A stretch of 64,000 nt of DNA from Candidatus Aenigmatarchaeota archaeon (GTDB lineage: Archaea; Aenigmatarchaeota; Aenigmatarchaeia; Aenigmatarchaeales; Aenigmatarchaeaceae). The notes below the pieces were generated by a model that saw only the letters and a program-made list of their open reading frames with translations, did not search any database and was not told the DNA's origin. Every line of letters begins with the position of its first letter. Within the stretch, counting starts at the first letter, position 1. Positions 27,678-43,980 of this stretch are shown here, piece after piece. The translations under genes and the position numbers were made by a program. The stretch spans positions 34,369 to 98,368 of the forward strand of contig JBDRJK010000014.1 in the NCBI GenBank assembly GCA_043814985.1. Direction: 5' to 3'.

Positions 27678-30600
27678 TTGAAAATTATAGTAATGTTTAT
27701 ATGGTGGGCTATAATAATATTTTTAGGTGTTGTATTGAATAAAAAGGGTTTTATTAAGTTTAGTCTGCTTTCTATGGTATTTTTATCAATTATTGCAGTC
27801 ATGGTCCTCTGGGTTCTACCAGCATTCGCTGATGTTGATCCAGGAGAACTGCAGGGTTATGACTTTTGTGGTGGGTATCCTTGCCCTTCTTGGGTTAATT
27901 TGACAAGAGGAGACATGTTCTTTGCAGACGGAAATGATGTTTATATAATTGCCAACATCAGCTGTGCAAATCCCCCAGGAGAAAATATTTGTAATTCAAG
28001 CATGACTGTTGATGCCGATTTTTCCCAAATAGGAGGAAGCGATGTCCAGCCCGGTGTATTCAAGCAAAACGGAACAGATGCCAGCTGGGCTATTTTCGAG
28101 TTTAATGATACAGTAGACTTCACATCATTGTCAGTAGAACAGATTCAACCTAATAACATTACCATGAACGCAACAATTTTTAACACTACTTCTGATTCAT
28201 ACGAAACATATGACTTGCCCAGTTTTTTTGCTCCAGTATTGCTGGTTAACATGTCAACTTTCGGTTGCCCTTCAGAAGGTCAGCCGGGAGTCTTTTTCCC
28301 CGAGGTTCCGGGGTGGAATGCGTCAAATTCGTCTCCGGTATTTAGTCCTATACAGGCAGTGGGATGTACGCAAAACGTTTCATTGTGCTCTTATATGGAC
28401 ACATACGGTCCTGGGACATGGAACGGCACGCACTGGTTGGTATGCGCACCCAACTTTGGAGGGTCAACAACAAACTTTACGGAGATAGCGGATGCAGGCA
28501 ATTTCTCTGCCATACAAAACTTCACCATAGAAGTTCCGGGAAAAGCCAAAATCATTTTCCAGACAAATGTTAGTTTCGATTCCCAGCAAGAATCTCAGGC
28601 CATAATGGAATTCGCTATGAAAAGTGTTATGGGAGGAGGAAGAGTGGGAATCAATGACACGGAGTTCTGTGGAGACAGTTGCGGTCAGCCCGATAAACCT
28701 AACCTAAATCTGTCTGCAAGGTTAACAATCTACAATGTTTCCGGCCAGTTAGGAATAACAGGAAATCCACAAATAATAAGGATGGGCTACGACGGTTCGA
28801 ATCCACAATCATGCCCACCGAGCATATGTTCTGACATTATCTGGGACGGAGAGAATCTAACATTTACAGTTTCAAGCTTTTCCAGCTATCAGGCCACTGA
28901 TGGTATAAACGTATCTCTTGTTTCGCCTGGAAACACCAATTGGACGAACAACAGAACTATTAATTTTAATTACATGCCTGTTTGGAACGATTCTATGACA
29001 ATGAGCAACTGCACACTTTTTGGAAACTTTACAGGCAGCTGGGAGGCAAATGAGACCAACAGCACTCCACTTTCAAATGGCGCTACAAATATCATTTCAA
29101 ACACTGTGAACGATGATGTCGCATACTTGTGGAACGTGGAATGTTATGATAACACAGGATTGGGTGATACAGGAACAACTAATTATACTGTCATGGTGGA
29201 TAGCATAGCTCCAACATGGTCTAATCAAAGCTACAATACAACACCCAATTACTCGTCATCGACACCTTCCTACTTCAACATAAGCTGGTCAGATGCCAAT
29301 GGAATATCAAAAGTCATTCTGGTTGGCAACTGGTCGGGCGGTCAAGAGTATGAGATGAACAACTTGGGCGGCGACGTTTACGGCTTCAATATCACTCTAC
29401 CAGCTGGTATTTATTATTGGCTGTCTTATGCAAACGACTCTTCAAACTATACAAATACATCAAACGGTTGGGCATTCATAATAGGTCAGGCATCTAATCC
29501 TGTTAGTCTTTATTTCAATGGAACCCAGAACTTAAACAAGACATACACTTATCCAGAAGCTGTTAACGCTACTGGAACATCAACCGTGTTAACACCATCT
29601 CTGTACAGAGATGGTGCATCAGTAGGAACTGATGAGCAAGTATTGCTTGGGAATGGGACGTATGCTTACAAGATAAATGCAACCGGTAACGCTAACTATT
29701 CAGACAATGTAACCGGTCTGACCTATTACGCACTTGTGAATATGGGAATGCCTTCAACAATTTTGGAATGGAATGAGAGCACGCCAGTTGATTTTGGATT
29801 CATAATAAATTTCACATCATACTCTTCAGATACAACTCTTGCAACAACATTTTACGCCAACTACTCTGGTGTTTTGGCTAACATATCTCCAGCAACTACT
29901 GGTCTTAACACAAACATAACCGATACATCTAATCTTGGTTTGGGTGTGTATCAAGTTGCTGCCAACACTACAGGCAATGCTAACTATTCAGACAACTCAA
30001 CCTTGGAGACCATAGTGTTTACAGTTTCTGATATCTCTTCACCTACATGGTCTGTCAACCAGAGCTCCAACCCGACGAACTATTCTTCAACTCTCAGTAC
30101 ATTCAACGTGACATGGAACGACAATACAGATATTTCCGACGTACTGATAACAATCAGGAATTCTACGGGCGTTTTAATCAACAACGCTTCCATGACCAAT
30201 GACACCTTTAATGGTTCTATCTATAATTATTCTATAATATTGCCAGCTGACACATACAACTGGACAGCATATGCCAACGATACTTCTGGAACTTGGAACG
30301 CAACAGACACTTGGATATTTACGATTAGCCAAGCCAATAACCCAGTCAGCCTTTATTTCAACGGCACAGAGAACGCAAACAAAACATACACCTACCCAGC
30401 AGCAATCAACGCAACAGCAACATCTGGAGGAACTGTTTATCTTTATAGGAACGGAACCCACATAGCCAATGGAACTTCTCCACAAGCAGAAAATATCCTA
30501 TTGGGAAACAACACCTACCCGTACAAAGTCAATGCAACTGGAAATGCAAACTATACTAGCAATTCAACAGGCCTGACTTATTATGCTTCTGTCAACAAAG

Positions 30601-31679
30601 GGACATTGGTTCTGATGATTAATGCAACACCTTCAACCTCGGTCACATATCCTGCCGAGACAACAGTCACTGGAACAGAAAACAACATTAATGATACGAA
30701 TGTCACATACAGGCTTTGGAGAGACGCTACCTTGGTCGACAACACAACCCCTTACCAGGAAGTTACAACCCTAGGCGGAGGCACATACGTCTACAGGTTC
30801 AATACAACAGGCAATGGGAACTGGACTGCCGACCCAGTTGGCGTTACACTAACAATGACTGTCGCAGGAGCTGCCTTCACGCCTGGTGGCGGAAGCGGTA
30901 CTGTACCAATTCCCACAAAAATGACAAGAACGCCCGGAAAAGTCAATATCACTGTTCCGTCCATATCAGCAGGCAGGACATTGAATATTACAATACAGAA
31001 AACAGAGGACATAGCATTCAGAAAGCTAAGCGTCACTATGATCAACACTGCGAGCAAGATAGGGATAATCATAACCAAGCTGTCAAGAATGCCCTCAACC
31101 ATATCTCATGATATAGAAGGAAAGGTTTACCATTACATCAATGTAGAAAAGGATAACATCACTGACGCGGACATCAACAGGACAATAATAAGGCTTGCTG
31201 TCAACAATACCTGGCTGTCTGACAACAACATCAACTCTTTGAATATCAGTCTCTACAGGTGGGAAGACACCAACTGGAACGAACTGCCGACCTACTATTC
31301 TTTTAATGATTCCTTTGAGTATTATTACGAGGCCATATCACCCGGGTTTTCCGTGTTCGCGATTGGAGAATCGGGTAGCGCGCCTGAAATAGAGGAGACA
31401 GCATGCTCAGAGAGCTGGTCATGCACTGAATGGTCAGAATGCTCTAATACAACACAAACAAGAACATGCACTGACTCCAATTCCTGCGGTACAACTGCCA
31501 GCAAGCCCACTGAAACACAGGAATGTGGAACAGTTGAGGCAGATATCACAGTCGAAGAATTGCCAACAGCAACAATTGTGGCAGTCGCGCTGCTAATCGT
31601 GATAGTTATTGCCGTACTTCTTTTCCTCAAGAGCAGGGGAAAAATCACTGTTGGATCTCCAAAAGAGGACTATTATTAG
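27678..31679 (+). CDS. giant N-glycosylation-sequon-rich cell-surface protein, type I membrane topology
   Basis: 1333 aa. N-terminal hydrophobic signal sequence, N-x-S/T sequons about every 10-12 residues, internal tandem domain repeats, a conserved C-terminal module, and a C-terminal TM helix with a short basic tail (LLFLKSRGKI...). The annotated start is TTG; ATG at 27693 is an alternative. Confidence 0.6.
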   Translation: MKIIVMFIWWAIIIFLGVVLNKKGFIKFSLLSMVFLSIIAVMVLWVLPAFADVDPGELQGYDFCGGYPCPSWVNLTRGDMFFADGNDVYIIANISCANPPGENICNSSMTVDADFSQIGGSDVQPGVFKQNGTDASWAIFEFNDTVDFTSLSVEQIQPNNITMNATIFNTTSDSYETYDLPSFFAPVLLVNMSTFGCPSEGQPGVFFPEVPGWNASNSSPVFSPIQAVGCTQNVSLCSYMDTYGPGTWNGTHWLVCAPNFGGSTTNFTEIADAGNFSAIQNFTIEVPGKAKIIFQTNVSFDSQQESQAIMEFAMKSVMGGGRVGINDTEFCGDSCGQPDKPNLNLSARLTIYNVSGQLGITGNPQIIRMGYDGSNPQSCPPSICSDIIWDGENLTFTVSSFSSYQATDGINVSLVSPGNTNWTNNRTINFNYMPVWNDSMTMSNCTLFGNFTGSWEANETNSTPLSNGATNIISNTVNDDVAYLWNVECYDNTGLGDTGTTNYTVMVDSIAPTWSNQSYNTTPNYSSSTPSYFNISWSDANGISKVILVGNWSGGQEYEMNNLGGDVYGFNITLPAGIYYWLSYANDSSNYTNTSNGWAFIIGQASNPVSLYFNGTQNLNKTYTYPEAVNATGTSTVLTPSLYRDGASVGTDEQVLLGNGTYAYKINATGNANYSDNVTGLTYYALVNMGMPSTILEWNESTPVDFGFIINFTSYSSDTTLATTFYANYSGVLANISPATTGLNTNITDTSNLGLGVYQVAANTTGNANYSDNSTLETIVFTVSDISSPTWSVNQSSNPTNYSSTLSTFNVTWNDNTDISDVLITIRNSTGVLINNASMTNDTFNGSIYNYSIILPADTYNWTAYANDTSGTWNATDTWIFTISQANNPVSLYFNGTENANKTYTYPAAINATATSGGTVYLYRNGTHIANGTSPQAENILLGNNTYPYKVNATGNANYTSNSTGLTYYASVNKGTLVLMINATPSTSVTYPAETTVTGTENNINDTNVTYRLWRDATLVDNTTPYQEVTTLGGGTYVYRFNTTGNGNWTADPVGVTLTMTVAGAAFTPGGGSGTVPIPTKMTRTPGKVNITVPSISAGRTLNITIQKTEDIAFRKLSVTMINTASKIGIIITKLSRMPSTISHDIEGKVYHYINVEKDNITDADINRTIIRLAVNNTWLSDNNINSLNISLYRWEDTNWNELPTYYSFNDSFEYYYEAISPGFSVFAIGESGSAPEIEETACSESWSCTEWSECSNTTQTRTCTDSNSCGTTASKPTETQECGTVEADITVEELPTATIVAVALLIVIVIAVLLFLKSRGKITVGSPKEDYY
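29200..30600 (+). repeat. tandem intragenic domain repeats, about 550 nt each, inside the 27678 gene
   Basis: Units at about 29200-29745 and 30030-30600 both encode ..APTWS(N/V)NQS..NYSS..(F)N(I/V)(S/T)W.D... followed by ..SNPVSLYFNGT.N.NKTYTYP.A(V/I)NAT...NATGNANY(S/T).N.TGLTYYA... Roughly 70-75% nt identity in sampled stretches. Confidence 0.5.
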
Positions 31680-31712
31680 ACTTAAATTCTTTACATTTCA
31701 AATTATAAGATA

Positions 31713-31721
31713 AGTTTTTTA
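31713..31721 (+). terminator. oligo-T tract after the 1333-aa surface-protein gene
   Basis: agtttttta sits about 35 nt after the stop. Confidence 0.25.
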
Positions 31722-31725
31722 AAAC

Positions 31726-32067
31726 GTGTTTATTATGCCACAAGATTGCGAAACAAAAATGGGACTGTTTTTTTACCGTTTGGACGACCACTCACCTCTA
31801 ACAAAGGATGAGGTTGTTGACGTGAAAGGGAACACTATATATGAATCTAAAACACTTCAGAAAATGATAAGCCAAATGAGAGAAAAAGTAGACATGATAA
31901 GAAAAAACAACGGATGCAGCAGAAAAAATATAAATTTAGGATTGGCGCCATGCTATGTCGCAGAAGAAAAATTGTTAAAATGCGCTAATCCGACAGCCTC
32001 CTTCGAAGTAATACCTGAATTAAATCCTGTTAATATGTCAGATTACAACTTCTTTGAATTGTGTTAG
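31726..32067 (+). CDS. hypothetical small protein
   Basis: 113-aa ORF with no recognizable motifs. Sits between a T-tract following the upstream gene and the repeat scar region. Confidence 0.25.
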   Translation: MFIMPQDCETKMGLFFYRLDDHSPLTKDEVVDVKGNTIYESKTLQKMISQMREKVDMIRKNNGCSRKNINLGLAPCYVAEEKLLKCANPTASFEVIPELNPVNMSDYNFFELC

Positions 32068-32081
32068 AAACAGAAAAAAAA

Positions 32082-32177
32082 TTAAGAAAAGTTCACTACG
32101 TCTCCATTCTCAGGAGCGATCGCGTCAAAGCCTCTACCTCTCAACTCAGTTGCAAACCTTTCAAAAAAAGTTCTGCA
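32082..32177 (-). pseudogene. relic 3' end (~30 codons) of a beta-CASP/MBL nuclease gene paralogous to 39174-40415
   Basis: Translation ...FFERFATELRGRGFDAIAPENGDVVNFS* parallels the intact gene's C-terminus ...CERFATELRGRGFDTIAPKNGDVVNI*. The nucleotide core 32124-32163 is nearly identical to 39213-39252, while the flanks differ mostly at synonymous positions. The rest of the 159-aa ORF is antisense overlap with the 32287 gene and shows no similarity. Confidence 0.5.
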
Positions 32178-32222
32178 GGAAAAACCAGCGTTTTTCATTA
32201 TTTCTTGCTGTTTTTGTAATAA
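32163..32222 (+). repeat. relic copy of the 5' end (start/signal-peptide region) of the 32287 surface-protein gene; start codon lost
   Basis: 32163-32222 (tcaaaaaaagttctgcaggaaaaaccagcgtttttcattatttcttgctgtttttgtaata) is about 90% identical to 32305-32367, which encodes MKKGREGKTSGFSLLLAVFVIF. In the copy, ATG is replaced by TCA. Confidence 0.5.
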
Positions 32223-32286
32223 GATATAATACAAAAATATATAAGGCACCTTTATCAAATAATCCTTATAAATTTTGGTGTAGTGT

Positions 32287-35200
32287 TTGCGTGAAGGTGT
32301 GAAAATGAAAAAAGGTCGTGAAGGAAAAACCAGCGGTTTTTCATTATTACTTGCGGTTTTTGTAATATTCTTACTTTCCTTTAACGTATTGACTTTTGCG
32401 GAACCAGAAGAAAATCCATGCGAATTGAAGTTCTGCCTAGTTGATGCTTTTGGCACGGAGGATAATGAGAGTATTGTTGTTTGTGCCGGCACATCAGAAG
32501 AAGTTAACTGGTTTAACATATGGTATAATGGAACAATGCTAAACACCACAAACGGTGGCATAATAAGCGCCCGATACTATGATTACAGCCTTGGCGCTAC
32601 AAACGGAACTGACTACAACAACGAGCCAATGAGCAATTTGTCTGATCCGTCATGCGTGTTGCTTGTTTTGAATGGGACCGATGCGCCGTTTACCAATCAG
32701 ACCATGCAAATCAATGCCACGGTTGGCAACAAGACAGACTATGCTGTTGCGGCCTATTCAGAATGCGGTCTTTCAGGATGTAACGGCACCATGTTCACGA
32801 TAAATTATGTTTCTCTGCAGGCTAATGACGCCTCAGGTGCGGCAGGTCTGCCGAACACAGCATTCATGGTCTTTGACAACAGCACCAAGTCGTTTTTGTT
32901 GGAAGGGCCTGCTCTCTCAGATACAGACGGCTATTGGGCCGAGCATTGTATGGGCGTTGTGACTGGAGGCGATTGTGTCAACCTGACACCGTTGATAGAG
33001 CCTAACATGTGCTTTTACCACGGGATAAGTTTTCCTCTTAACGATACAGACTCTCTATGCACTATAAACCAGACAACTACAATCATTGCCCTGGACTTTA
33101 TATCCTCGAACAAGTCCGAGCAAAACGTTACGCCAGGCACACCGCTTTCGCTAAACCTTGGCACACCCGCGTCCATGGCCATGGTAATGGTTTCTCTATG
33201 GTCCCCAAATTCATTCCAGCAAGAGAACATACCAAACCAGCTAAACGTCCATGACAATGCGACTGACGAGCTTTTGTTTATTGTCACGGGCCAGGACAAG
33301 ACAATGCCCGCCTTCCTGGAGCCATTCAAACACTATAAAATAAAGTTTAACTATGGCGGGAGAAACTATAGTTTCCCATTCATGACGCCTGTTTCAGGCA
33401 TGACAGGAGCTCAAATATTCCTGGCAAACAACACCACGCACACAGATTCCGACTACAGAACGATTGTCGGAAAGGTGGTAAACCAGACATCCGACTCTTC
33501 AGGCAACAAGTATCCTGTGCCGAATGCCACTGTCTATGCCCAGTTCTTCAAGGGCCCGAGCGGCGCGTTCGGAATACAGTTCTTCAACTCTTCCGTGACC
33601 GACGAGAACGGCATGTTCTCCATGAGGATTCCGAAATCGCTGCCCCCGAGCGAGCATTCGCAAGGCGACATGTACTTCCCGCAATACCAGTTCTTCATAG
33701 TCAGCGACAAGACAAGCGATGGCGTGCCTGTCTACTACCCCACGATAGACAACAACAATAACAGAGGGTATTTTGCAATAGGCGACACTGTCGTGCTCCC
33801 GCCACTGACTCTCAAGGCCGGTGGGCTTGTCGATGCCAGACTTACGCTCAACAGCGCAAGAATGATCATAAGCGAGCTCAGCAAGTTCTCCTCCACGGGG
33901 ACAGGCATCCAAAGGGACGATGTCACAGGGAAATTCTCGATGACGTCAATGTTCGAGAATGTGAACCCGCCATCAAGCATGAACATGTCATTCCTTTCCC
34001 CTGTCGGAAACAATATGGTCATTGACTTTTTCGGCAAGAACACGACAATGGGGGATCCGATGTCCGGCTCGATAATGAGGGCATGCTTCAACATTTCCGC
34101 GAACGTCACGCAGGGCATCATATCTTCAATAAGGTGCAATCTCACAGAGCCTGGTTATCTGAACCTTACTGTTTACACGTGCAATGACATATTCGACTAT
34201 AATATTTCTGACGAGTCCAAATGCTCAAACCTGCAGAACACGATGAACAGGAACAAGGCAGGCTCCTTTGACTTCTGGTTCGAGACAAGCGGCATTATCC
34301 GCAACAGCAACGGCCAAGTTGTTGTCTTGATAAATCCCGAAGGCGTGCTGCTTGAGAACCTTGTCGGTTTCGGGAGCCAGTCACCGACGCTTAGCGTGCC
34401 GCTGCCAGCGGGAAACTACACGCTAGAACTAACCTCATCATTCGATTTCAGCCAGTACCTTAGTGTTTACAACAAGACAAACATCTCAATAGCGCCAGGA
34501 GCAACTGTTGTTATGAACCTTGCTAGGGCTGAGAACTGGAACATACAGCCGATGTTCAATCCGTCCATGGCGCTTTCAGACAACAACAATATCAACGTTT
34601 CTATAATGACAAAGCAGGGCACGATGCTAAACGGTACGAGAGTCGCCTTGACAGCCAGAATACTTTTCCTAAACAAAACTGTGGCAAATGCAACAACAAT
34701 AACATTCAGCTACGACTCTAACAGGAATACGTTCTACAACCTTACTTTTAGGCCGGCCTCCTTTAACCTCGATGCAGGCAAGTACATAATGCTTCTCAAT
34801 GCAAGCAACTTCAGCGGAAACACCCTTTACACTTCCACCAATACCATGCAGTTCAATGCGTACGATTTCCAGGTCGGTATGGACCTGGGCGGCTTCACCT
34901 TCGGCACGAACCAGACCGTGAACGGAAAGATATTCGTCTTCAACACGAGCACCAATCCGCCGACAGGAATCAACTCAACCAGCATAGGCGCCGACAAGAA
35001 CGTGACAGTCAAGATGTACGACTCTACTGGCACAGAGGTTTCTGTTGCCTATAGCGCATCCAACATAACAGACGGCCAGGGATACGTGAACTTGACAATG
35101 CCTACTACTTTAGGATTCTACCAGGTAGTGACTTCTGTGACAGCCGACAACTGCTTCTCGGAAGGCTGCACAAACGGCACTGTAGGAGTGTCTGACAACT

Positions 35201-37665
35201 GGGTCCAGATAAGCAACATAAATATCAAGACCACGACAGACAGGCAGAGATACCAGCCATCGGACAATGTCGCTTTGACCATTCAGGTTTCCAACTCAAC
35301 TACAGGTGCGGCAATCAGCGGCGCGTCGGTCGAGGTTGTGGCTGACAGCAGCGACACGCCTGCAATAGGAACGACGGGCTCCGACGGCAAGGCCACTATA
35401 ACGCTTAACTCTTCCACGCACTCTGGGAGCACTTCGTGGTCATACGGATGGCACAACCTCAGGATAAAAATATCCAAGAACATCGGAAGCAATGTTGTCA
35501 AGCTGGAGACGTGGTTCGGCTTTGACGTCAGGGGAACAGACCTGTTTGTCAGGCCAGAAAGGCCCTCGTACCAGACTACTGACAACGTGACAATACTTAT
35601 GTACGGTCCTTTGGAAAGTTTCACAATACCACCGTCAGGCGTCAAGGTGGACGGCACAACGCTTTCGCAAGGATCGCTTGACAACTGCGACCCGACGCCG
35701 AATGTGACATTCTGCATAAACGACGCCTGGAGCAGCGGCTCAAAGGAGGTAAAGATCGGGAACTGGTCTGTCGGGCACCACAATGTCGAGATAACGTCCT
35801 CCACAGGCGGCGGCCAGCAGAAATTCTATGTAGGCTTTGATGTGAACTCATTCAACATCATGACGTCGACAGACAAGTTCAGCTACGACCTCAATGAGAA
35901 CATAACGCTGAGCGTCAAGGCAACAGCAATAAACGGCACCGCATTATCAGGACAGAACTTTACTGCCACTCTTTACAAGGCACAGCCGCCAAACGACATA
36001 CTTGTCGCCGGGGCAAACGGCACCACGAACTCCACGGGGCAGGCCACTGTCACATTGAACGCAACAAAGCCCGGCTTCAACTATATAATGATAAACATGG
36101 GAGGGCAGAAACAGTTCATGGGCGTGCAGGTTTCAACACTCAAGGTAACTCTTCTATCAGGTGAGCCTGGGCCGAGTGCATCTATAGTAGATAACTATGA
36201 CGTCTCGCCTGGCAGCACTGTTATAATCTATGTCAATGCCACGAGAGGTGGCGCCAGCGTGCCTGACGGGACAGCGGTTTCAGCAAAGCTCTGGTCATTT
36301 GGAAACTACATCGAGATACCGTTCAACACCACTACCAACGGAAACGCGACAATTTCCTTGGATATACCGGCGTTCTCGCCGCTTCAAAAGTACGGATTAG
36401 AAATTAGGCTAACGTCTCCAGACGGCGAGCAAGGATTTGCGCCGCCAGCGACAGTCACAGTTACGGGCGGGGCAGCGCTCCAACTGAGCGCCATATCAGA
36501 CAGGTCTTTCAACAGCCCCTACAAGTCAGGAGACAATGCGACCCTGACGGCAAAGCTGACTTACACGAACGGCACCGGAGTGAGCGGCTATATTGTAACC
36601 TTTGAAGTCGGATCAGATGGAACAACCCCGCGCGTTGTCGGAACAGCCACTACCGGAAGCGACGGCACTGCAAGAAAGACCATGACAATAACGAGCAACT
36701 ATACTGACGGCCCTTACTTTTTGCATGCATACATTACAAACAGCAGCGATGTACAGTCCTACTCAGGCTTCATTGTGAGCAGTCTCAGGGTAGTTGCAAG
36801 CGCAAACAGCAACACATATTCTCCGGGAGATAATGTGATGCTGAATATATCTGTTTACAACAGGACATCCGGATTGCGAATAAACGCGACAAGCGGATTC
36901 CTTTTCATCTTCAACAAGGATAAGGGAGAGATACAGCAGTATGTCGACACCTCTGGACAGGCGCAGCCGTACCGGGTGAACATCTCGATACCCAACGAAA
37001 TTAGTGCCATAGGCACTTATCCGATTGCTGTCGACATGTTCGTTAACCAGTCACACGGCTTCGGATTCGTGATGGTCAACGTCAAAAACGCCTCGCAAAG
37101 CCTGAACATGACAATGCCCGATTCAATAGATGCGGGAACATACTTCCTTGTCAACATAAGCTCGAGCCTCAACGGCACGGTCACTCTGAGGGCCTTCTCG
37201 CCAGCGGCATCAAGTCTGGTTTACGAAAACACAAGCATAGCCCTGAGCTCAGGATCCCTGCCAAACGCCACGATAAACATGTCAATAACAGACCCGGGCG
37301 TGTACGTGTTTAATGCGTTTGTCAGCGGCATAGGCATGACAACGCAAGTTGTCACAGTGTCCCCGCCAACAAGCGGGACTGTACCCGCGATATGGACAGG
37401 CTCTGCCTTGGCAACAAACGCGACAACGTTCGATGCAACGAGCAGCGTCTACATACTTTGCAACATACCGAATGCAATAGCATCGGTTCTTACTTTAGAT
37501 GAGAACACGACAATAACCATGCAGGTGCCCCTGTCCTTAACAACAGGAAGCAATTACTATAGCATACTGAACAGCACGGCGCTCGTCAGCGGGAGAAAGT
37601 ATTTTGTGCGCCTCGATACTAACACGTCCACGGGAGTCTACAACACGATGTTTACGGTGAACTGA
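32287..37665 (+). CDS. giant sequon-rich cell-surface protein (1792 aa), compositionally foreign (GC-rich)
   Basis: Signal peptide FSLLLAVFVIFLLSFNVLTFA, very dense N-x-S/T, Thr/Ser/Asn/Gly-rich beta-type composition. Sampled GC is about 50-57% against about 35-42% in flanking genes, with frequent GCG/CCG/ACG/TCG codons that are rare elsewhere in the window. Confidence 0.6.
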   Translation: MREGVKMKKGREGKTSGFSLLLAVFVIFLLSFNVLTFAEPEENPCELKFCLVDAFGTEDNESIVVCAGTSEEVNWFNIWYNGTMLNTTNGGIISARYYDYSLGATNGTDYNNEPMSNLSDPSCVLLVLNGTDAPFTNQTMQINATVGNKTDYAVAAYSECGLSGCNGTMFTINYVSLQANDASGAAGLPNTAFMVFDNSTKSFLLEGPALSDTDGYWAEHCMGVVTGGDCVNLTPLIEPNMCFYHGISFPLNDTDSLCTINQTTTIIALDFISSNKSEQNVTPGTPLSLNLGTPASMAMVMVSLWSPNSFQQENIPNQLNVHDNATDELLFIVTGQDKTMPAFLEPFKHYKIKFNYGGRNYSFPFMTPVSGMTGAQIFLANNTTHTDSDYRTIVGKVVNQTSDSSGNKYPVPNATVYAQFFKGPSGAFGIQFFNSSVTDENGMFSMRIPKSLPPSEHSQGDMYFPQYQFFIVSDKTSDGVPVYYPTIDNNNNRGYFAIGDTVVLPPLTLKAGGLVDARLTLNSARMIISELSKFSSTGTGIQRDDVTGKFSMTSMFENVNPPSSMNMSFLSPVGNNMVIDFFGKNTTMGDPMSGSIMRACFNISANVTQGIISSIRCNLTEPGYLNLTVYTCNDIFDYNISDESKCSNLQNTMNRNKAGSFDFWFETSGIIRNSNGQVVVLINPEGVLLENLVGFGSQSPTLSVPLPAGNYTLELTSSFDFSQYLSVYNKTNISIAPGATVVMNLARAENWNIQPMFNPSMALSDNNNINVSIMTKQGTMLNGTRVALTARILFLNKTVANATTITFSYDSNRNTFYNLTFRPASFNLDAGKYIMLLNASNFSGNTLYTSTNTMQFNAYDFQVGMDLGGFTFGTNQTVNGKIFVFNTSTNPPTGINSTSIGADKNVTVKMYDSTGTEVSVAYSASNITDGQGYVNLTMPTTLGFYQVVTSVTADNCFSEGCTNGTVGVSDNWVQISNINIKTTTDRQRYQPSDNVALTIQVSNSTTGAAISGASVEVVADSSDTPAIGTTGSDGKATITLNSSTHSGSTSWSYGWHNLRIKISKNIGSNVVKLETWFGFDVRGTDLFVRPERPSYQTTDNVTILMYGPLESFTIPPSGVKVDGTTLSQGSLDNCDPTPNVTFCINDAWSSGSKEVKIGNWSVGHHNVEITSSTGGGQQKFYVGFDVNSFNIMTSTDKFSYDLNENITLSVKATAINGTALSGQNFTATLYKAQPPNDILVAGANGTTNSTGQATVTLNATKPGFNYIMINMGGQKQFMGVQVSTLKVTLLSGEPGPSASIVDNYDVSPGSTVIIYVNATRGGASVPDGTAVSAKLWSFGNYIEIPFNTTTNGNATISLDIPAFSPLQKYGLEIRLTSPDGEQGFAPPATVTVTGGAALQLSAISDRSFNSPYKSGDNATLTAKLTYTNGTGVSGYIVTFEVGSDGTTPRVVGTATTGSDGTARKTMTITSNYTDGPYFLHAYITNSSDVQSYSGFIVSSLRVVASANSNTYSPGDNVMLNISVYNRTSGLRINATSGFLFIFNKDKGEIQQYVDTSGQAQPYRVNISIPNEISAIGTYPIAVDMFVNQSHGFGFVMVNVKNASQSLNMTMPDSIDAGTYFLVNISSSLNGTVTLRAFSPAASSLVYENTSIALSSGSLPNATINMSITDPGVYVFNAFVSGIGMTTQVVTVSPPTSGTVPAIWTGSALATNATTFDATSSVYILCNIPNAIASVLTLDENTTITMQVPLSLTTGSNYYSILNSTALVSGRKYFVRLDTNTSTGVYNTMFTVN

Positions 37666-37667
37666 AA

Positions 37668-39155
37668 ATGAAAGCAGCGATATTATTACTTGCGTTTTTG
37701 GTTGCGATGGCCTGCCCTGCGCTCGCGACAGGCTCAATATCAATATCGAGCGTAAGCATGCCTTCCAGCGTGACTACGGGGGACACCTTTACAATTACAA
37801 TGTCTGTCACAGGCTCTGAGGTCAGCGATGTAAGCGGTTCGTTGACTTTGCCGACAGGACTTAGCTGCACACCGTCTGGTTCGCAGTCCATATCAATGTC
37901 AGGCGGTTCTGGAAGCACAAGCTGGTCGTGCACTGCGTCGGTTGCAGGAGACTATACAAACCAGATAACTGCGAGCGTGGCTGCATTGGATTCCGGGACA
38001 GGCCAGCCGCTTTCTGACAGCTCACAGACAGGCCTGCAGGTGATGACGCCTGCATCTCTAACGTCATCATCATCAATAGCGTCTTCAAGCATAGTCGCGG
38101 GCGGTTCGACTACACTCACGGTAGGCGTGAACAACGCGGGCGGAACGACCACGACATATAACATATCCATGTCTTGCACAGGGCTTTCATGCTCACCTTC
38201 ATCTGTCTCGAGCAATAGCATAGATGGGAACACCATAGCTTACCACACGTTTACCATAACCTCGACAAGTGCTGGCGCCTTTACAGCGACTGCTACCATA
38301 AGCGGGAACGGCCAGACACTAACAACATCCAAATCATTAACAGTAAGCTCTTCCGATTCCCAGCTTCCTGGAGGCGGAGGCTCTCCCGGAGGTGGCGGTG
38401 CATCTACCAGAACTTTTACAATGAGGTACAAAAAGGGAAACTGTAACATAACCGTGCCATCAATGGTTGCCAACAGCATAATGAACTTTACAATAGCAAA
38501 GACAGAGGACATAGCATTCAGGCAGATCAACGTTTCTGTTGCAAGGACTGCCAACAACACAAAAATAATTATCAACAGGATTATGGCATTGCCGGACTCA
38601 GTAGGCCACGACATACAAGGCAAGGTTTATCATTACATACAGATAGACAATATTAACATAACCGATGGCGACTTAAGCAGGGTTTACATAAAATTCGCTT
38701 TAAACAGATTATGGTTTGATGAAAACGGCATAGGAATGCAAAACATCAGCCTCTACAGGTGGGAAGGTGATGGATGGAACGAATTGCCCACAACATACAT
38801 GAGCGAAGACGCTTCCGAAGTTATTTATCAAGCAGAGTCGCCGGGCTTCTCGATTTTTGCAATAGGGTCTGGCGGTGCAGAAACAATAACCGAAGAAGGG
38901 CAGGCAGGCTGTACAGAGAGCTGGTCGTGCACTGAGTGGTCCGAGTGCGCAGACAACCTTCAGACAAGAGGGTGCACAGACTTCGGCGCCTGCGGCACAT
39001 ACGCAAGCAAACCGTTCGAGTCACAAGAGTGCCAGGTTGTTGCAGAGACACAGTTCCCGATGGTTGAGGTCTCTATAGTAGTTCTTGTAGCAATAATCCT
39101 GATAATCGGTTTTCTCGCAGCAAAAGGGAAAATAAATCTTAATAAAAACAAGTGA
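37668..39155 (+). CDS. cell-surface protein (495 aa) with a Ser/Thr-rich N-terminal region, a conserved C-terminal module and a TM anchor
   Basis: Signal peptide MKAAILLLAFLVAMACPALA. C-terminal ~230 aa are homologous to the C-terminus of the 27678 gene product (KTEDIAFR...GKVYHYI...ISLYRWE..WNELPT...SPGFS.FAIG...C.ESWSCTEWSEC...). TM helix IVVLVAIILIIGFLAA. GC-rich like its upstream neighbour, 2 nt away. Confidence 0.6.
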   Translation: MKAAILLLAFLVAMACPALATGSISISSVSMPSSVTTGDTFTITMSVTGSEVSDVSGSLTLPTGLSCTPSGSQSISMSGGSGSTSWSCTASVAGDYTNQITASVAALDSGTGQPLSDSSQTGLQVMTPASLTSSSSIASSSIVAGGSTTLTVGVNNAGGTTTTYNISMSCTGLSCSPSSVSSNSIDGNTIAYHTFTITSTSAGAFTATATISGNGQTLTTSKSLTVSSSDSQLPGGGGSPGGGGASTRTFTMRYKKGNCNITVPSMVANSIMNFTIAKTEDIAFRQINVSVARTANNTKIIINRIMALPDSVGHDIQGKVYHYIQIDNINITDGDLSRVYIKFALNRLWFDENGIGMQNISLYRWEGDGWNELPTTYMSEDASEVIYQAESPGFSIFAIGSGGAETITEEGQAGCTESWSCTEWSECADNLQTRGCTDFGACGTYASKPFESQECQVVAETQFPMVEVSIVVLVAIILIIGFLAAKGKINLNKNK

Positions 39156-39173
39156 ATTTTTCTTAGTTTAGAA

Positions 39174-40415
39174 TCAGATATTGACAACATCCCCGTTCTT
39201 GGGAGCTATTGTGTCAAAGCCCCTACCTCTCAGCTCAGTTGCAAACCTTTCACAGTAGTCTCCGTGCAGGCACATGACCTTCTCCGGGTTTATATTGTTG
39301 ACAAACTTGAACAGGTCGGCCCTTCCCACATGAGCTGAAAAGTCCATCCTTTGTATGTTCATCTTTATCTTCAAATCAAAACCTTCTGTGACAAACCTTC
39401 CCGTGTCAACAAGGTATCTTCCGGCTGTCTTCGGTATAAGGAAGCCAGTGAATATTATGGAGCTTTCAGGACTGTTGTACAATGACTTGACATAGCCTAC
39501 AGAAGGCCCTCCTTCCAGGAGCCCTGATGTCGTTATAATCGCGCAGGGCTTCTTTGTTATGGCCCTCCTCTGCTCTGCAGATTCTATTGTCCTGACATTC
39601 TTGAAAGCCTTTCTCAAAGCCTTGGCATCTCTAATAAATTCTGGATAGCTCAGTGATATTTCAGTTGCTTTTCTTGCCATGCCATCCAGATAAACAGGAA
39701 AATCATGCTTGAAGGAATCAACAACCATCAGAACTTCTGCTGCTCTTCCAATGGCAAATGATGGAATGATAGCAACCCCCTCGTTGGCGATTGTTCCCTC
39801 AATGGCTTCGAAAAAATCCTTTTCCACCTCCTTTCTAGGTGGATGGTCCCTGTTGGAGTAGGTGCTTTCCATTATAAGCAGGTCAACATCCTTGACATCT
39901 ATCTTGGCGCCCTTGAGCAATCTTGTATCATTTGTGTTGAAGTCGGAAGTGTAAAGGATTCTCTTGCCTCCCATTTCCAATAAGCAGCAGAAGCTTCCTG
40001 GTATGTGCCCGGCATTGTAGAATTCCATTGAATAGTCATTGGTCTCAAACCTCTGGCCATATGTTATCCTGGTTTCATTCTTTTTCATCTTTGCAACGCC
40101 CACTTTGGTGAAAGGCAATTTCTTGTTCTCATATCTGGCTATTTTCATACTGTCTCTCAGGAGAAGATGTGTAAGTTCAAAGGTAGTGATTGTTGACAGC
40201 ACATTAGGCTTCATCTTCCCGAACAGCTTGGGAGCAGAACCAATATGGTCCAGGTGGCCATGATTTAATACAAGCGTATCAACTTTACTTGGGCTCAATG
40301 GAGACTCACCAGTTTCAACCTTGACCCCATAGTCAAAAAGTATGCTTTTCTTCCCTTCAATAAGGACAGCATTCTTGCCGACTTCCCTGAAGCCTCCTAG
40401 GCATCTTATCTTCAT
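39174..40415 (-). CDS. metallo-beta-lactamase/beta-CASP ribonuclease (aCPSF2-like, no KH domains)
   Basis: 413 aa. MBL motif 2 LVLNHGHLDHIGSAP. Beta-CASP-sized C-terminal half. Lacks the N-terminal KH domains of aCPSF1. Confidence 0.7.
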   Translation of the reverse strand: MKIRCLGGFREVGKNAVLIEGKKSILFDYGVKVETGESPLSPSKVDTLVLNHGHLDHIGSAPKLFGKMKPNVLSTITTFELTHLLLRDSMKIARYENKKLPFTKVGVAKMKKNETRITYGQRFETNDYSMEFYNAGHIPGSFCCLLEMGGKRILYTSDFNTNDTRLLKGAKIDVKDVDLLIMESTYSNRDHPPRKEVEKDFFEAIEGTIANEGVAIIPSFAIGRAAEVLMVVDSFKHDFPVYLDGMARKATEISLSYPEFIRDAKALRKAFKNVRTIESAEQRRAITKKPCAIITTSGLLEGGPSVGYVKSLYNSPESSIIFTGFLIPKTAGRYLVDTGRFVTEGFDLKIKMNIQRMDFSAHVGRADLFKFVNNINPEKVMCLHGDYCERFATELRGRGFDTIAPKNGDVVNI

Positions 40416-40464
40416 AGTATTCCTAATTCTTTTCGTACTTTATTAAGGTTATTAAAGAATAGTG

Positions 40465-40986
40465 CTACTTGCCTTTCTTTTTTCTATATTTATATTCAGC
40501 TAACCTGCATAGTTGATGAGCGGGATTATTCTCGCTTTTTATTTCCTTGTATTTAATGTTATAGCTCCTTCTTATGTCTTGAACATCTTTTATTTTTTTC
40601 TCCAATATTTCTAATTCAGCTTCTGTAAGTCCATTATTTTCTTTGTTCAGGGACTTTGCAACATTCTTGGACCTTCCCATTAAATCAACTAATTGTCTGC
40701 AGTCAGAAGATATAGAAACACGATTGTCTCCGTTTCCATATTTTTTGCAATAAATTTTATTGCAATAATGAGGTATAGTTATTATAGCATCAAAGTTCGC
40801 CGTTGCCTCGGCCATAAAAGTAGTGTGCGGAGAAACAGTTTTTACATCATAAATCTCCTGGATTTTAACCCTGTCGTTATCCTCTACAAGAATGCCTAAT
40901 GACACTTTACTATCATTTAGCAAATGCCCGTCAACATAAAGACTGAAAGGATACTCGTATGAGGGATAATGTAAAATCGAGTTCAT
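40465..40986 (-). CDS. hypothetical protein, possibly RNase H-like fold
   Basis: 173 aa. The ordered motifs SLYVDG ... FMAEATA ... VSISSDC loosely parallel the RNase HI D/E/D catalytic segments (FTDGS ... NNRMELMA ... LSTDSQY). Confidence 0.3.
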   Translation of the reverse strand: MNSILHYPSYEYPFSLYVDGHLLNDSKVSLGILVEDNDRVKIQEIYDVKTVSPHTTFMAEATANFDAIITIPHYCNKIYCKKYGNGDNRVSISSDCRQLVDLMGRSKNVAKSLNKENNGLTEAELEILEKKIKDVQDIRRSYNIKYKEIKSENNPAHQLCRLAEYKYRKKKGK

Positions 40987-41137
40987 AATCTAAATGAAAG
41001 AACAAGCTTTAAATCCTCATCCCAAAAAACAACCTTTGTTCCAAAGGAACGAAAGTATTAAATTTGTATTTGAACAATTTTATTAAACTGTTTCTTGTAA
41101 CAGATAAGTTAATATTTTTCTCCGCTTCATTAGTTTT

Positions 41138-41914
41138 ATGGAAAAGGCAGAAATCGGGTTTATTGGTGGCACTGGTCTTTACGATTCTTCAATGCTAAAG
41201 GACTCGTCCAAGATTGAAATAGATACAGACTATGGGAAAACTTCTGATGCATTTAATATCGGAACAATGAATGGAAAGAAGATTGCATTTCTTGCAAGGC
41301 ACGGTCAAGGCCACAGAATACCTCCTCACGAGCTGAACTTCAAGGCCAACATTAATGGCTTTGAGAAACTGGGAGCAAAAAGAATTGTCGCATGTTGCGC
41401 TGTTGGCTCTCTGAAGGAAGAGTACAAGCCAGGAGACATTGTGATACCTGACCAGTTCATTGACTGGAAAAAGACAATGGCAACATTTTACAACACGGGA
41501 AATGTTAAGCATGTTTCTTTGGCTGATCCGTTCTGTTCAGAGATAAGAGAGGCGCTGATAATAACCTGCAAGGACTTGGGAATAAGATTTCATGATAGGG
41601 GAACCTATCTCTGTGTTGAGGGTCCGAGGTTCTCGACAAGGGCTGAGAGCAGGATGTTCAGGAAATTCGCAGAGATAATTGGGATGACTGGTATACCAGA
41701 AGCAATTTTGGCAAGGGAAAGGGAAATCTGTCTTGGTATATTGGCAACAGTAAGTGATTATGATGTGTGGGCAGACAAGCCTGTTACATTCGAAGAGATT
41801 AAGAAAACAATGAAAGAAAACAACGAAAAGGTAAAGCAAATAATAAAGGAAGTTGTGAAAAACATTCCTGATGAGAGAAACTGTGTTTGTAAGGATGCTT
41901 TGAAATCCGCTTAG
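41138..41914 (+). CDS. S-methyl-5'-thioadenosine phosphorylase (MTAP, PNP/MTAP family)
   Basis: 258 aa. N-terminus AEIGFIGGTGLYD matches the MTAP glycine-rich phosphate loop. Length and motifs fit PNP family I. Confidence 0.7.
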   Translation: MEKAEIGFIGGTGLYDSSMLKDSSKIEIDTDYGKTSDAFNIGTMNGKKIAFLARHGQGHRIPPHELNFKANINGFEKLGAKRIVACCAVGSLKEEYKPGDIVIPDQFIDWKKTMATFYNTGNVKHVSLADPFCSEIREALIITCKDLGIRFHDRGTYLCVEGPRFSTRAESRMFRKFAEIIGMTGIPEAILAREREICLGILATVSDYDVWADKPVTFEEIKKTMKENNEKVKQIIKEVVKNIPDERNCVCKDALKSA

Positions 41915-41961
41915 GGCAACTGTTATATAAACAATTATATTAAAATTAAAATAGTGATTTT

Positions 41962-42990
41962 ATGAAAGCCTACAAGAATTTAGAAGAACGTGTAAATCTT
42001 GTCAAGCGTAATACTGTTGAAGTTCTCACTGACGAAGAATTGGTTGAGCTGTTAAAAACCAAAAAGCAACCAACAGTATATCACGGACGGGCAATTACTG
42101 GTCCTTTGCATATTGGACATTTGATTCCTTTGGGTAAGCTTTTTGATTTTAATAGAGCAGACATAAAAGTTAAAATTTTGTTGGCTGACATTCATGCAGC
42201 TCTTGATGATTTAAAGTCAAAATGGGAGGACCTTGACAAAAGAGCCGAATATACTCGTAAATGCATTGAGTTGTCATTTGACTGGCCAAAGAAACTTAAT
42301 TTCGTAAAAGGTTCTGACTTCCAGCTTGAAAAGAACTATGTTATGGATATTTGGAAGATTGCTACAATTGCTACAGTTGTCAGAACCACAAGGGCTGCAT
42401 CAGAGGTCACTAGGATGAAGAACCCTAAGACAAGCGAGTTGGTCTATCCAATAATGCAGGCTTTGGATGAGCAATATCTTGATGCTGACATACAGCTTGG
42501 GGGAACTGATCAGAGACATATAATGGCTTTTGCTAGGGAATACCTGCCTAAGATAGGATATAAAAAGAGGGTTGAGATTATGACTCCCTTATCTGCTTCA
42601 TTACTTGGTTCTGGGACCAAGATGAGTTCGTCCATACCTGCCAGTGTCATAAAAGTCTATGATTCTGAGGAGTCAATAAAAAAGAAAATAAACAAGTCAT
42701 ACTGTCCTGCCAAGATAGTTGAGAACAATCCTATAATCCAGATAGCTTCAATGCTGATAATTCCTATAGATGGAAAGTTATCCATAAAGAGGGACAAGAA
42801 GTTCGGTGGTGATATTGACATCACATCTTCAGAACAACTTGAAAAACTTTTTGTTAATGGAGAACTTCATCCAGCTGATTTGAAAAATGCAGTTACAACA
42901 TATCTGATAAACAAATTCAAACCAGTAAGGAATTATTTTGAAAAAAATACTGATATCTTGAAAGATTTGGGAAATGAATTCTTGCCTTAG
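41962..42990 (+). CDS. tyrS: tyrosyl-tRNA synthetase, archaeal type
   Basis: 342 aa. Class I HIGH motif present as GPLHIGHLIPL and KMSKS as KMSSS. The short form without a C-terminal S4 domain is typical of archaea. Confidence 0.8.
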   Translation: MKAYKNLEERVNLVKRNTVEVLTDEELVELLKTKKQPTVYHGRAITGPLHIGHLIPLGKLFDFNRADIKVKILLADIHAALDDLKSKWEDLDKRAEYTRKCIELSFDWPKKLNFVKGSDFQLEKNYVMDIWKIATIATVVRTTRAASEVTRMKNPKTSELVYPIMQALDEQYLDADIQLGGTDQRHIMAFAREYLPKIGYKKRVEIMTPLSASLLGSGTKMSSSIPASVIKVYDSEESIKKKINKSYCPAKIVENNPIIQIASMLIIPIDGKLSIKRDKKFGGDIDITSSEQLEKLFVNGELHPADLKNAVTTYLINKFKPVRNYFEKNTDILKDLGNEFLP

Positions 42991-43014
42991 AAGTTACAAG
43001 ATGATTGTAAACAA

Positions 43015-43980
43015 TTATATCTCAATAATACGTTCTTTTATTGCCTGACCGAAATGCGTTGCAACTGGTTCTGAAACATAAGCCTTAACCGAGTCTCCAG
43101 GCTTTATTTTGGTTACTGGTATTGAGCCATCAGGAGAAACGATTCTTACAGTTTCTGCGTTCTGTGAGCATATGGTGCCTGTCTTATCTCCGTATTGTGC
43201 TTTTATGAATATCATTGGCCTCATCTCCTTTTTCAGAACCGCCGCATAGGCCTTTCTAGTCTTGCCCTCATAGTTTACAGCTAAGACATCTTCGCAGATT
43301 TGGTCCATGGACTTTAAGTCGTCCAGATATTTTGGGGAGAAGCCATTACCTGAAAATACCTGCGTATACATTCTAGCAGCTCCAGCATTCACCCTCCAAT
43401 CCCTTTTGTTGACAAAGGGGTTTTCATCAGTCTCAGCATCAGGCAAGAACATAAAATCAGTTTTGAAACCAACCAATAATCCTTCCCTCTTCTCAAAAGA
43501 TGCGATTGTGTCCACACAAACCCTCTTACCTATGTCCGCTCTTTTGGTTTCAACAACCTCAGCGTTAACCAAGTTAAGTTTAGGAGGGGATTGATAATAA
43601 GAACAGAAATCTTCTATCTTTTCTGGGTCGCTCACAACAAAACCGTCAACGCCCATTTCAAGAGCATTTGCGAGGGCCTTTGAGCCTTCTATATCATTGG
43701 TCTTGACTAAAACCTTTGTATTGCTTTTCTGTGTTAGGGCAATCAGATTTTCAGTTGGTATGGCCTCCCAATCCGTGAAGTTAGCAATTAGATAATTCAC
43801 ACCTTTCAATTTTCTTCCAACAGCCTCTATATCCTCCTGAGAACTTATTTTAACTTCCTTGTAACCTTTTGGTAAAGTTGGCAGGTTTCCTTTGCTCTGT
43901 CCTAGTATTCCAGTGGCATTATATTTTATTACATCATCTTCCAAGTCTTCTTTTCTACAATCAACCCATATTTCTTTCAT
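43015..43980 (-). CDS. 3-dehydroquinate synthase II (archaeal aroB', DKFP/ADH-pathway type)
   Basis: 321 aa. N-terminal MKEIWVD...VVSDPEKIEDF and overall pattern resemble the MJ1249-type DHQ synthase II family. Adjacent to the aroA'-type aldolase, as is common in archaea. Confidence 0.65.
   Translation of the reverse strand: MKEIWVDCRKEDLEDDVIKYNATGILGQSKGNLPTLPKGYKEVKISSQEDIEAVGRKLKGVNYLIANFTDWEAIPTENLIALTQKSNTKVLVKTNDIEGSKALANALEMGVDGFVVSDPEKIEDFCSYYQSPPKLNLVNAEVVETKRADIGKRVCVDTIASFEKREGLLVGFKTDFMFLPDAETDENPFVNKRDWRVNAGAARMYTQVFSGNGFSPKYLDDLKSMDQICEDVLAVNYEGKTRKAYAAVLKKEMRPMIFIKAQYGDKTGTICSQNAETVRIVSPDGSIPVTKIKPGDSVKAYVSEPVATHFGQAIKERIIEI

Follow-up and report, generated by a model that had tools for sequence, protein, structure and literature searches.

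Replacement flexible genomic islands for exposed cell structures have been described by Lopez-Perez, Martin-Cuadrado and Rodriguez-Valera (2014, PMC4033161), and a cell-wall island of this type is known from Haloquadratum walsbyi (PMC4535781). The locus considered here lies in a window of 64 kb (the whole stretch of DNA that was analysed, to which all coordinates refer) from an uncultivated DPANN archaeon of the Aenigmatarchaeota. It is the interval between the N-glycosylation genes for STT3 and a polysaccharide flippase on one side and the gene for a beta-CASP/RMMBL ribonuclease (hereafter beta-CASP) on the other, and it holds a module of two surface-protein genes, S1792 and S495, together with a second, displaced copy of the 3' end of beta-CASP. 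Our reading, which we hold to be somewhat probable, is that in Aenigmatarchaeota this interval serves as a variable island of the replacement type, devoted to proteins of the cell surface, and that the module was imported, and the displaced gene end left behind as a scar, in a single event requiring no integrase.

The locus shows the position, the gene content and the discordant divergence of a replacement flexible genomic island. Its position between conserved genes is fixed, non-homologous genes for surface glycoproteins or S-layer-type proteins stand beside glycosylation genes, and exchange between diverged lineages is seen as discordant synonymous divergence, with no dedicated mobile element needed. 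The differences are that the described islands concern strains of one species with both crossovers in the conserved flanks, whereas here the flanking synonymous sites are saturated between donor and recipient, one junction is illegitimate and the displaced gene end has been kept as a scar.

Displaced ('orphan') 3' ends are known from Rhs, contact-dependent inhibition (CDI) and type VI secretion system (T6SS) effector loci, for which a model has been given (PMC5361080), and homology-facilitated illegitimate recombination (HFIR), described in PMC3240628, is a mechanism proposed for displaced ends in Rhs and T6SS loci. On our reading, the resemblance is that a short conserved stretch of a resident gene would anchor the incoming DNA, the other end being joined without homology, and that the earlier 3' end would be displaced downstream and kept as a fragment beginning with the conserved piece. 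In the Rhs, CDI and T6SS loci, however, what is carried in is the variable 3' end, with its toxin domains, and displacement is repeated. Here there is only one displaced end. The anchoring gene codes for a housekeeping ribonuclease and has two ends with nearly identical peptides, and the convergent surface genes next to it are the cargo. HFIR is not known to occur in archaea of this kind.

Some integrative elements, among them archaeal and bacterial proviruses and plasmids that enter tRNA genes, use an integrase to insert at a gene's 3' end, which they restore. The present locus is like them in that direct repeats of the target 3' end bound the insert and the gene stays intact. It is unlike them in having no integrase, no element genes and no tRNA target, in that one boundary is fused to the remnant of a gene start, and in that the core of the repeat is imperfect and, among relatives, no better conserved than the tail at third positions.

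The interval is a hotspot at which relatives carry unrelated surface genes. Its conserved left border is the flippase gene (389 aa, Pfam Polysacc_synt; 26460-27629, minus strand), adjoined by the STT3 gene (Pfam STT3; 24352-26406, minus strand), and its conserved right border is the intact beta-CASP gene (413 aa, Pfam Beta-Casp, RMMBL and Lactamase_B; 39174-40415, minus strand). The flippase gene (with STT3) and beta-CASP flank the interval both in the window and in ten relatives (L003, L004, L010, L011, L013-L017 and L027). The distance from flippase to beta-CASP is 276 nt, with no gene, in L017, 4.3 kb in L014 and L015, 6.1-8.6 kb in L003, L004, L010, L011, L013 and L016, 11.5 kb in the window and 16.9 kb in L027. 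The large island proteins are mostly unrelated across these relatives, those of 1039, 1409 and 1486 aa having no similarity to the genes of the window, and no homologue of S1792 was found in the beta-CASP-anchored loci L003-L025. It is because the interval varies from 0.3 to 16.9 kb, with unrelated genes in the ten relatives, that it is called a hotspot. A fixed chromosomal hotspot had been proposed in the original prediction, which was made from the letters of the window.

Two genes of the interval have a history different from that of their neighbours. S1792 (32305-37665, plus strand) encodes a secreted surface protein with a signal peptide, no membrane anchor and MG2/Ig-like matches, and S495 (37668-39155, plus strand) encodes a 495-aa PGF-pre-PGF surface protein with a signal peptide and a C-terminal transmembrane anchor. 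The best match of S1792 (89% aa identity) is in L027, a related metagenome-assembled genome (MAG; GCA_043802485.1), further full-length homologues being 43-60% identical. The gene order in L027 is STT3, flippase, a 1420-aa gene like the resident S1333 of the window (described below), the S1792 orthologue, a 524-aa S495 orthologue, four genes and then beta-CASP. A tract of discordantly high similarity to L027 extends from 32337 to 38999 (87.2% nt identity over 6674 nt by blastn) against 68-71% in the flanks. Between window and L027, the aa identity and the proportion of synonymous differences (pS) are 59% and 0.78 for STT3, 56% and 0.75 for the flippase, 56% and 0.76 for S1333 against the 1420-aa gene, and 74% and 0.78 for beta-CASP. 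The corresponding values are 88.6% and 0.36 (synonymous distance, dS, about 0.5) for S1792 and 81.4% and 0.37 for S495 against the 524-aa gene. Synonymous saturation is seen in all four flanking genes and in neither cassette gene. In STT3 and flippase the relatives L028 and L029 are just as far from the window, but the identity of their S1792 is no more than 60%. Given that the cassette is unsaturated and that S1792 in L028 and L029 is so much less similar, the ancestor of the cassette shared with L027 is far more recent than the ancestor of the genomes.

The composition of the cassette agrees with this. In 500-nt windows, GC content is 0.46-0.54 across 32.5-38.5 kb and 0.34-0.46 in the flanks; the distinct GC content noted earlier was thus upheld, although the peak is 0.538 and not 0.57. 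The GC content at third codon positions (GC3) is 0.603 in S1792 and 0.51 in S495, with CpG observed/expected ratios (o/e) of 0.99 and 0.89, whereas the 44 other genes of the window have a mean GC3 of 0.39 (standard deviation 0.08, maximum 0.56) and a mean CpG o/e of 0.49 (standard deviation 0.14). Set against these 44 genes, S1792 has the highest GC3 (z=2.5) and an outlying CpG o/e (z=3.7). The predicted richness in codons of the GCG and CCG type was also borne out, NCG codons being enriched in the cassette (Pro CCG 0.43 vs 0.11, Ala GCG 0.28 vs 0.09). Four-fold codon usage differs from the rest of the window in S1792 (p=7e-49) and in S495 (p=9e-9) by an excess of NCG, GGC and GTC, while that of S1333 is the same as in the rest of the window (chi2 p=0.6). 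S1792 and S1333 are nearly equal in amino-acid composition and in GC content at second codon positions (0.45 and 0.46) and differ in GC3 (0.60 vs 0.42). Surface genes are not intrinsically GC3-rich, the island genes of nine relatives having a GC3 no higher than that of their flanks. Genes of L027 have a GC3 of 0.49-0.63 and a CpG o/e of 0.7-0.96. The composition of the cassette matches L027 and not this genome, an indication that the donor was an L027-like lineage and the present lineage the recipient. A lateral origin of 32337-38999 from a distantly related lineage is strongly supported. The earlier claim of horizontal exchange of whole surface-protein genes at a fixed hotspot is supported too and agrees with the pS of 0.36 against 0.75-0.78, the L027-like composition and the variable interval in relatives.

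The island of L027 was itself found to vary in composition. Within it (21174-22429 of that locus) are genes for a methyltransferase and an acetyltransferase with GC3 values of 0.25 and 0.34, compared with 0.49-0.63 in their neighbours, and this island also looks mosaic.

The two cassette genes form a unit. S495 starts 2 nt past the stop codon of S1792 and is convergent with the intact beta-CASP gene. In six genomes (the window, L027, L028, L029, L032 and L033) an S1792-type gene is always accompanied by a partner of about 490-520 aa, co-oriented and 2-40 nt apart. The pair lies directly after the flippase, beside STT3, in L028, L029 and L033 and elsewhere in the genome in L032. S1792 contains 81 N-glycosylation sequons, and from its predicted features the pair looks like a secreted subunit and its membrane tether. 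SlaA and SlaB of the Sulfolobales form a two-component archaeal S-layer. By analogy, the present pair would likewise comprise the gene of a large, secreted, sequon-rich subunit followed by the gene of a smaller, C-terminally anchored subunit, kept together as a pair; its domains, in contrast, are MG2/Ig-like and PGF-pre-PGF, and the likeness is one of architecture. The earlier statement that the interval between the repeats holds two surface genes and no others was correct, but the length given for the larger was not, since the true ATG of S1792 is at 32305, giving 1786 aa, and the count of 1792 aa starts at an upstream TTG.

The 3' end of beta-CASP is present twice in the window. The displaced end (32082-32163, minus strand) reads ERFATELRGRGFDAIAPENGDVVNFS up to its stop codon and is composed of a tail (32085-32123) and a near-identical core (32124-32162). 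In the intact gene, on the same strand, the core is at 39213-39251 (codons 389-401) and the tail at 39177-39212 (codons 402-413). A repeat search gave a direct repeat, 32092-32163 and 39181-39252, of 72 nt at 83% identity, and homology extends from codon E389 through the stop, that is, over the last 25 codons. When the beta-CASP protein was used in tblastn against the window and 26 related loci, one extra copy was found in the window (32091-32168, E=3e-8) and a second end was absent from all 26 relatives. The 39-nt core (2 mismatches) occurs twice in the window and in 0 of 100 shuffles. As had been claimed, the repeat is real. The core was also said to have diverged homologous flanks; this is true of the 3' tail, whereas the other flank is a fused signal-peptide remnant. 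A 159-aa ORF (open reading frame) at 32082-32561 on the minus strand was discarded as an artefact in which the fragment is read on into the antisense of the 5' end of S1792; gene callers give only 38 aa.

The pattern of differences between the two ends is informative. Over the 25 aligned codons (75 nt) there are 15 differences, 11 of them at third positions and 0 at second positions. By the Nei-Gojobori method 12 are synonymous (Sd) and 3 non-synonymous (Nd), with pS 0.70, a proportion of non-synonymous differences (pN) of 0.05 and a pN/pS of about 0.07, so the earlier description of the differences as mainly synonymous holds. A duplicate-and-decay model with equal time on both branches was simulated with 4000 runs per rate, and at least 12 synonymous together with at most 3 non-synonymous differences were obtained in 0 of 4000 simulations at any rate tried. 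Because nearly all of the differences are synonymous, the two ends diverged as functional alleles in different lineages and were joined recently, and did not arise by duplication and decay in place (P<1/4000). The divergence is mosaic: 2 of 39 nt differ in the core and 13 of 36 in the tail, and the third positions that differ number 1 of 13 and 10 of 12, respectively (Fisher p=2e-4). In functional orthologues the third positions of the core show no special conservation (0.50 vs 0.58 in the tail). The mosaic fits a crossover or heteroduplex repair in the core; alternatively, recombination could have been possible only where the alleles were already nearly identical. No breakpoint signal was seen along beta-CASP in sliding identity against L002, L003 and L027.

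The left junction of the cassette is illegitimate and has no resemblance to an attachment (att) site. The upstream side of the fragment is fused at 32163/32164 to a degenerate, frameshifted copy of the first ∼20 codons of S1792 (32164-32221, plus strand), a signal-peptide 5'-end remnant of a surface-protein gene with 85-94% identity to 32308-32367. The fusion joins beta-CASP codon 389 to codon 2 of the signal-peptide remnant, with at most 1 base shared. The 5' end of S1792 is the sole match found for the remnant (93.5% over 46 nt with one gap). An origin of the remnant from a 146-nt tandem duplication was rejected, the sequences after each copy being unrelated and the match limited to 59 nt. 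Between the remnant and S1792 is an AT-rich spacer of 83 nt (32222-32304, plus strand) which is not common to L027 and is presumed to be the promoter region of S1792.

On the other side of the fragment lie the resident genes. The 1333-aa product of S1333 (27678-31679, plus strand) is a surface protein of the PGF-pre-PGF type, matched by TIGR04213 and anchored in the membrane at its C-terminus. The next gene is o113 (31726-32067, plus strand), an orphan ORF of 113 aa that the earlier description had overlooked; it is situated between S1333 and the beta-CASP fragment and convergent with the latter across a 14-nt gap. For o113 no homologue except itself was found among 5.8 billion proteins, there was no Pfam or PHROG match, and the ORF is absent from all the fetched loci. 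In L002, the closest relative found (beta-CASP 86% aa identity, dS about 1.2), an S1333 orthologue (70% aa identity and orthologous to the last residue) overlaps beta-CASP stop to stop with no room between. Judging from L002, the ancestral state would have been S1333 tail to tail with beta-CASP. With S1333 as query, no close relative turned up on a contig long enough to reveal an empty site, and look-ups of the exact sequences of S1333, S1792 and S495 gave no contigs.

No similarity was seen between S1792 and S1333. S1333 and S495 share a C-terminal module (48% aa identity, pS 0.84) at a similar distance from their stop codons. In a comparison of S1333 with L002, synonymous difference dips to 0.30-0.40 at codons ∼1106-1165 (∼30990-31170) and is 0.6-0.8 elsewhere. 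This dip falls inside the PGF-pre-PGF domain and may mark recombination over a short tract of the common C-terminal module.

Genes of mobile elements were sought without success. All genes in 20-50 kb were scanned with Pfam, NCBIfam and PHROG, and no integrase, transposase, viral or plasmid gene came to light; the earlier statement that no integrase remains is thus confirmed. No tRNA or Rfam family was found in or near the segment, no viral contig matched the cassette or the core pattern, and no additional boundary repeat emerged from a repeat search over 27-41 kb. The two intact genes take up all the space between the repeats, leaving no room for element genes. An integron-like cassette array was ruled out by the lack of an integrase and of any further repeated boundary element.

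The absence of mobile-element genes, and the full occupation of the repeat interval by two conserved genes, are the reasons for favouring recombination without an integrase. The starting arrangement would have been S1333, then o113, tail to tail with beta-CASP. A two-gene surface module from a lineage richer in GC3 and CpG and related to GCA_043802485.1 would then have been inserted between o113 and beta-CASP by the host recombination machinery. One exchange would have used homology in the beta-CASP 3' end, marked by the 39-nt core at codons 389-401, and the other end would have been joined illegitimately, bringing codon 389 of beta-CASP up against codon 2 of the signal peptide of a surface gene. 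The intermediate may have been linear DNA taken up by HFIR or a circularised fragment entering by Campbell-type integration, both of which would give the same product. In either case one allele would now supply the last 25 codons of the gene, and the corresponding codons of the other would survive at a distance of 7 kb as a scar without function. Three parts of this account are inferred: that a single event both formed the scar and brought in the cassette, which way the 3' end was replaced, and what type of intermediate took part.

Several findings do not sit easily with a single event of this kind. The segment exchanged was at first thought to be bounded by the two beta-CASP ends, which is not supported: the tract shared with L027 stops inside the surface genes, ∼170 nt and ∼180-300 nt short of the beta-CASP copies. 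Similarity to L027 starts only at ∼32336-32337, in the signal peptide, and decays around S495 codon 400-430 (∼38.9-39.0 kb), the pS of S495 being 0.27-0.36 up to about codon 360 and then rising to 0.75 in the last ∼75 codons. Because the shared tract stops short of the copies, the link between the import and the beta-CASP scar is circumstantial. In addition, the 524-aa gene of L027 is not next to beta-CASP, and the arrangement required of the donor is found in no known genome. A second, intact signal peptide with its own upstream region stands 146 nt past the remnant and is not predicted by a single simple event. As to which end is native, the characters of the 36-nt tails, judged by distances to L002, L003 and L027, conflict: compared with L002, the intact end has 6 differences and the fragment 11, but the fragment has the GCG codon and the extra 'Ser-stop' (TCT TAA) of L002, and the intact end has the 'VVNI-stop' of L027. 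Finally, L002 is known from a 3.6-kb contig only. The original idea of an element that brought its own replacement 3' end is plausible in its recombination-based form alone, and import of the present 3' end is not demonstrable since the tail characters conflict.

Part of this evidence would be accommodated if there had been two events, an explanation that we regard as doubtful but by no means negligible. An older event would have left the scar (fragment and remnant), and later an L027-like allele would have replaced the body of a resident surface-gene pair by homologous recombination, with crossovers in the signal-peptide coding region (∼32337) and in the PGF-pre-PGF/anchor module of S495 (∼38.9-39.0 kb). 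This would explain why the tract of high identity begins in the signal peptide and decays in the C-terminal module and not at the beta-CASP copies, and why the first ∼10 codons of S1792 and the region upstream are unrelated to L027. The C-terminal module common to island genes (the 48% aa identity of S1333 and S495) is a possible substrate for such recombination, and the remnant would be an earlier gene start once at the same position. The limits of the tract may, however, stem from rearrangement in the L027 lineage, where the C-terminus of the 524-aa protein is longer and different and four extra genes are present. Furthermore, the fragment has 3 non-synonymous changes in 58 sites and the core 2 in 39, indicating a young scar compatible with the age of the import, and beta-CASP ends from two alleles need lateral DNA, of which the cassette is the obvious carrier. 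The readings with one event and with two both leave the lateral origin and the hotspot intact.

Another reading is that a virus or plasmid inserted site-specifically at the beta-CASP 3' end as an integrative element, with a replacement end borne on attP, and later lost its integrase. The original prediction had seen here the classic signature of an element that integrates into a gene end and supplies a new one. The segment is indeed bounded by direct repeats of a gene 3' end, and a 39-nt core with a diverged tail resembles an att core with its arm. The signature nevertheless does not hold, and we consider such an element very unlikely. No element gene is present in 20-50 kb, two intact genes that are a conserved chromosomal pair in five other genomes occupy the 7 kb from repeat to repeat, the left end is an illegitimate fusion to the remnant of a gene start, the core is mismatched at two sites and shows no special conservation in relatives, no viral contig matches, and the extra fragment is in no relative. 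Equally improbable, in our view, is that the 39-nt stretch of codons 389-401 is a dedicated attachment site at which an unrecognised recombinase, acting in trans or host-encoded, shuttles promoter-bearing surface modules between lineages of Aenigmatarchaeota. If that were true, there would be an integron-like surface-variation system in DPANN archaea, and the contig breaks inside both cassette ends mentioned below would reflect co-existing alternative cassettes.

It is hardly credible that the arrangement is a chimera of two strains made in metagenome assembly. The window does come from a MAG, and short-read contigs of the same samples break at 32718 and 38851. Logan contigs from SRR27458547 and SRR27458548 are, however, 100% identical to the window over 29419-32718 and 31223-32718, both crossing the junction and so reproducing S1333, o113, the fragment, the remnant and the 5' end of S1792 exactly, and 38851-43281 is contained in a third such contig. 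The repeat copies have no exact match above 18 nt in common, less than the length of usual assembly k-mers. As independent assemblies of two runs reproduce the arrangement exactly, a chimera, and an assembly artefact as the source of the junction, is unlikely. The contig stops at 32718 (two runs) and 38851 fall ∼380 nt and ∼150 nt inside the ends of the L027-like tract; they may be a sign that different versions of the cassette co-exist in the population, or may simply stem from repeats or coverage.

In-place tandem duplication of a segment ending inside beta-CASP, followed by divergence, has next to no chance of being correct: a gene-end fragment fused to a gene start is the junction topology expected from it, and the C-terminal modules of S1333 and S495 do stand at matching distances from their stop codons, but a fragment so formed would drift neutrally and not show 12 synonymous to 3 non-synonymous differences with tail third positions near saturation (P<1/4000), the S1333/S495 module is only 48% identical with pS 0.84, S1792 is unlike S1333, and the foreign composition and L027 affinity of the cassette are left unexplained, so that tandem duplication is refuted by the pattern of non-synonymous and synonymous change unless the fragment is a translated peptide under purifying selection.

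Some observations concern beta-CASP in relatives and the genes around the island. Orthologues of beta-CASP at 37-86% aa identity were found in 25 loci from MAGs of Aenigmatarchaeota, Nanoarchaeia, Woesearchaeota and Micrarchaeota. Three proteins of the window have exact counterparts annotated in an Aenigmatarchaeota MAG at NCBI. The gene of L004 (5301-7853) is interrupted in frame by ∼1.3 kb after residue 57, and that of L025 (3600-7796) twice, by ∼1.6 kb following residue 224 and by ∼1.3 kb following residue 360; the inserts resemble inteins. An ORF of 173 aa (40465-40986) on the 5' side of beta-CASP belongs to no Pfam or PHROG family and, among the fetched relatives, occurs only in L001, which is an identical copy of the region. 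The nearby tryptophanyl-tRNA synthetase (TrpRS) gene (41962-42990) is 77% identical to that of L025 and 40-46% identical to those of L005, L007 and L019, but only 32-36% identical to the TrpRS at the same position in most other relatives, L027 included, and two divergent TrpRS types appear to hold one syntenic slot. On the other side of the island, at 20468-22700, a B12-binding radical SAM gene that is an outlier in GC3 (0.55) and NCG codons is overlapped at its start by a gene of low GC content (0.30), whose product has endonuclease domains of the NUMOD3 and Vsr-like types. The orthologue of this radical SAM gene in L028 (1789-4259) is in two parts, separated by a NUMOD3 ORF with intein-splicing domains around it.

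The principle of island exchange of surface genes was already known. What is new is a further example and a usable marker, the displaced gene end, which is a datable scar. On our preferred reading, an illegitimate junction and a short homologous anchor suffice for such an exchange and no mobile element is needed. A complete two-gene module (dS about 0.5) has crossed between lineages far more diverged than the module itself, and the replacement-island dynamics of free-living aquatic bacteria and haloarchaea thus also operate in Aenigmatarchaeota. DPANN archaea are thought to live attached to other cells, and their surface proteins likely govern host contact and exposure to viruses.

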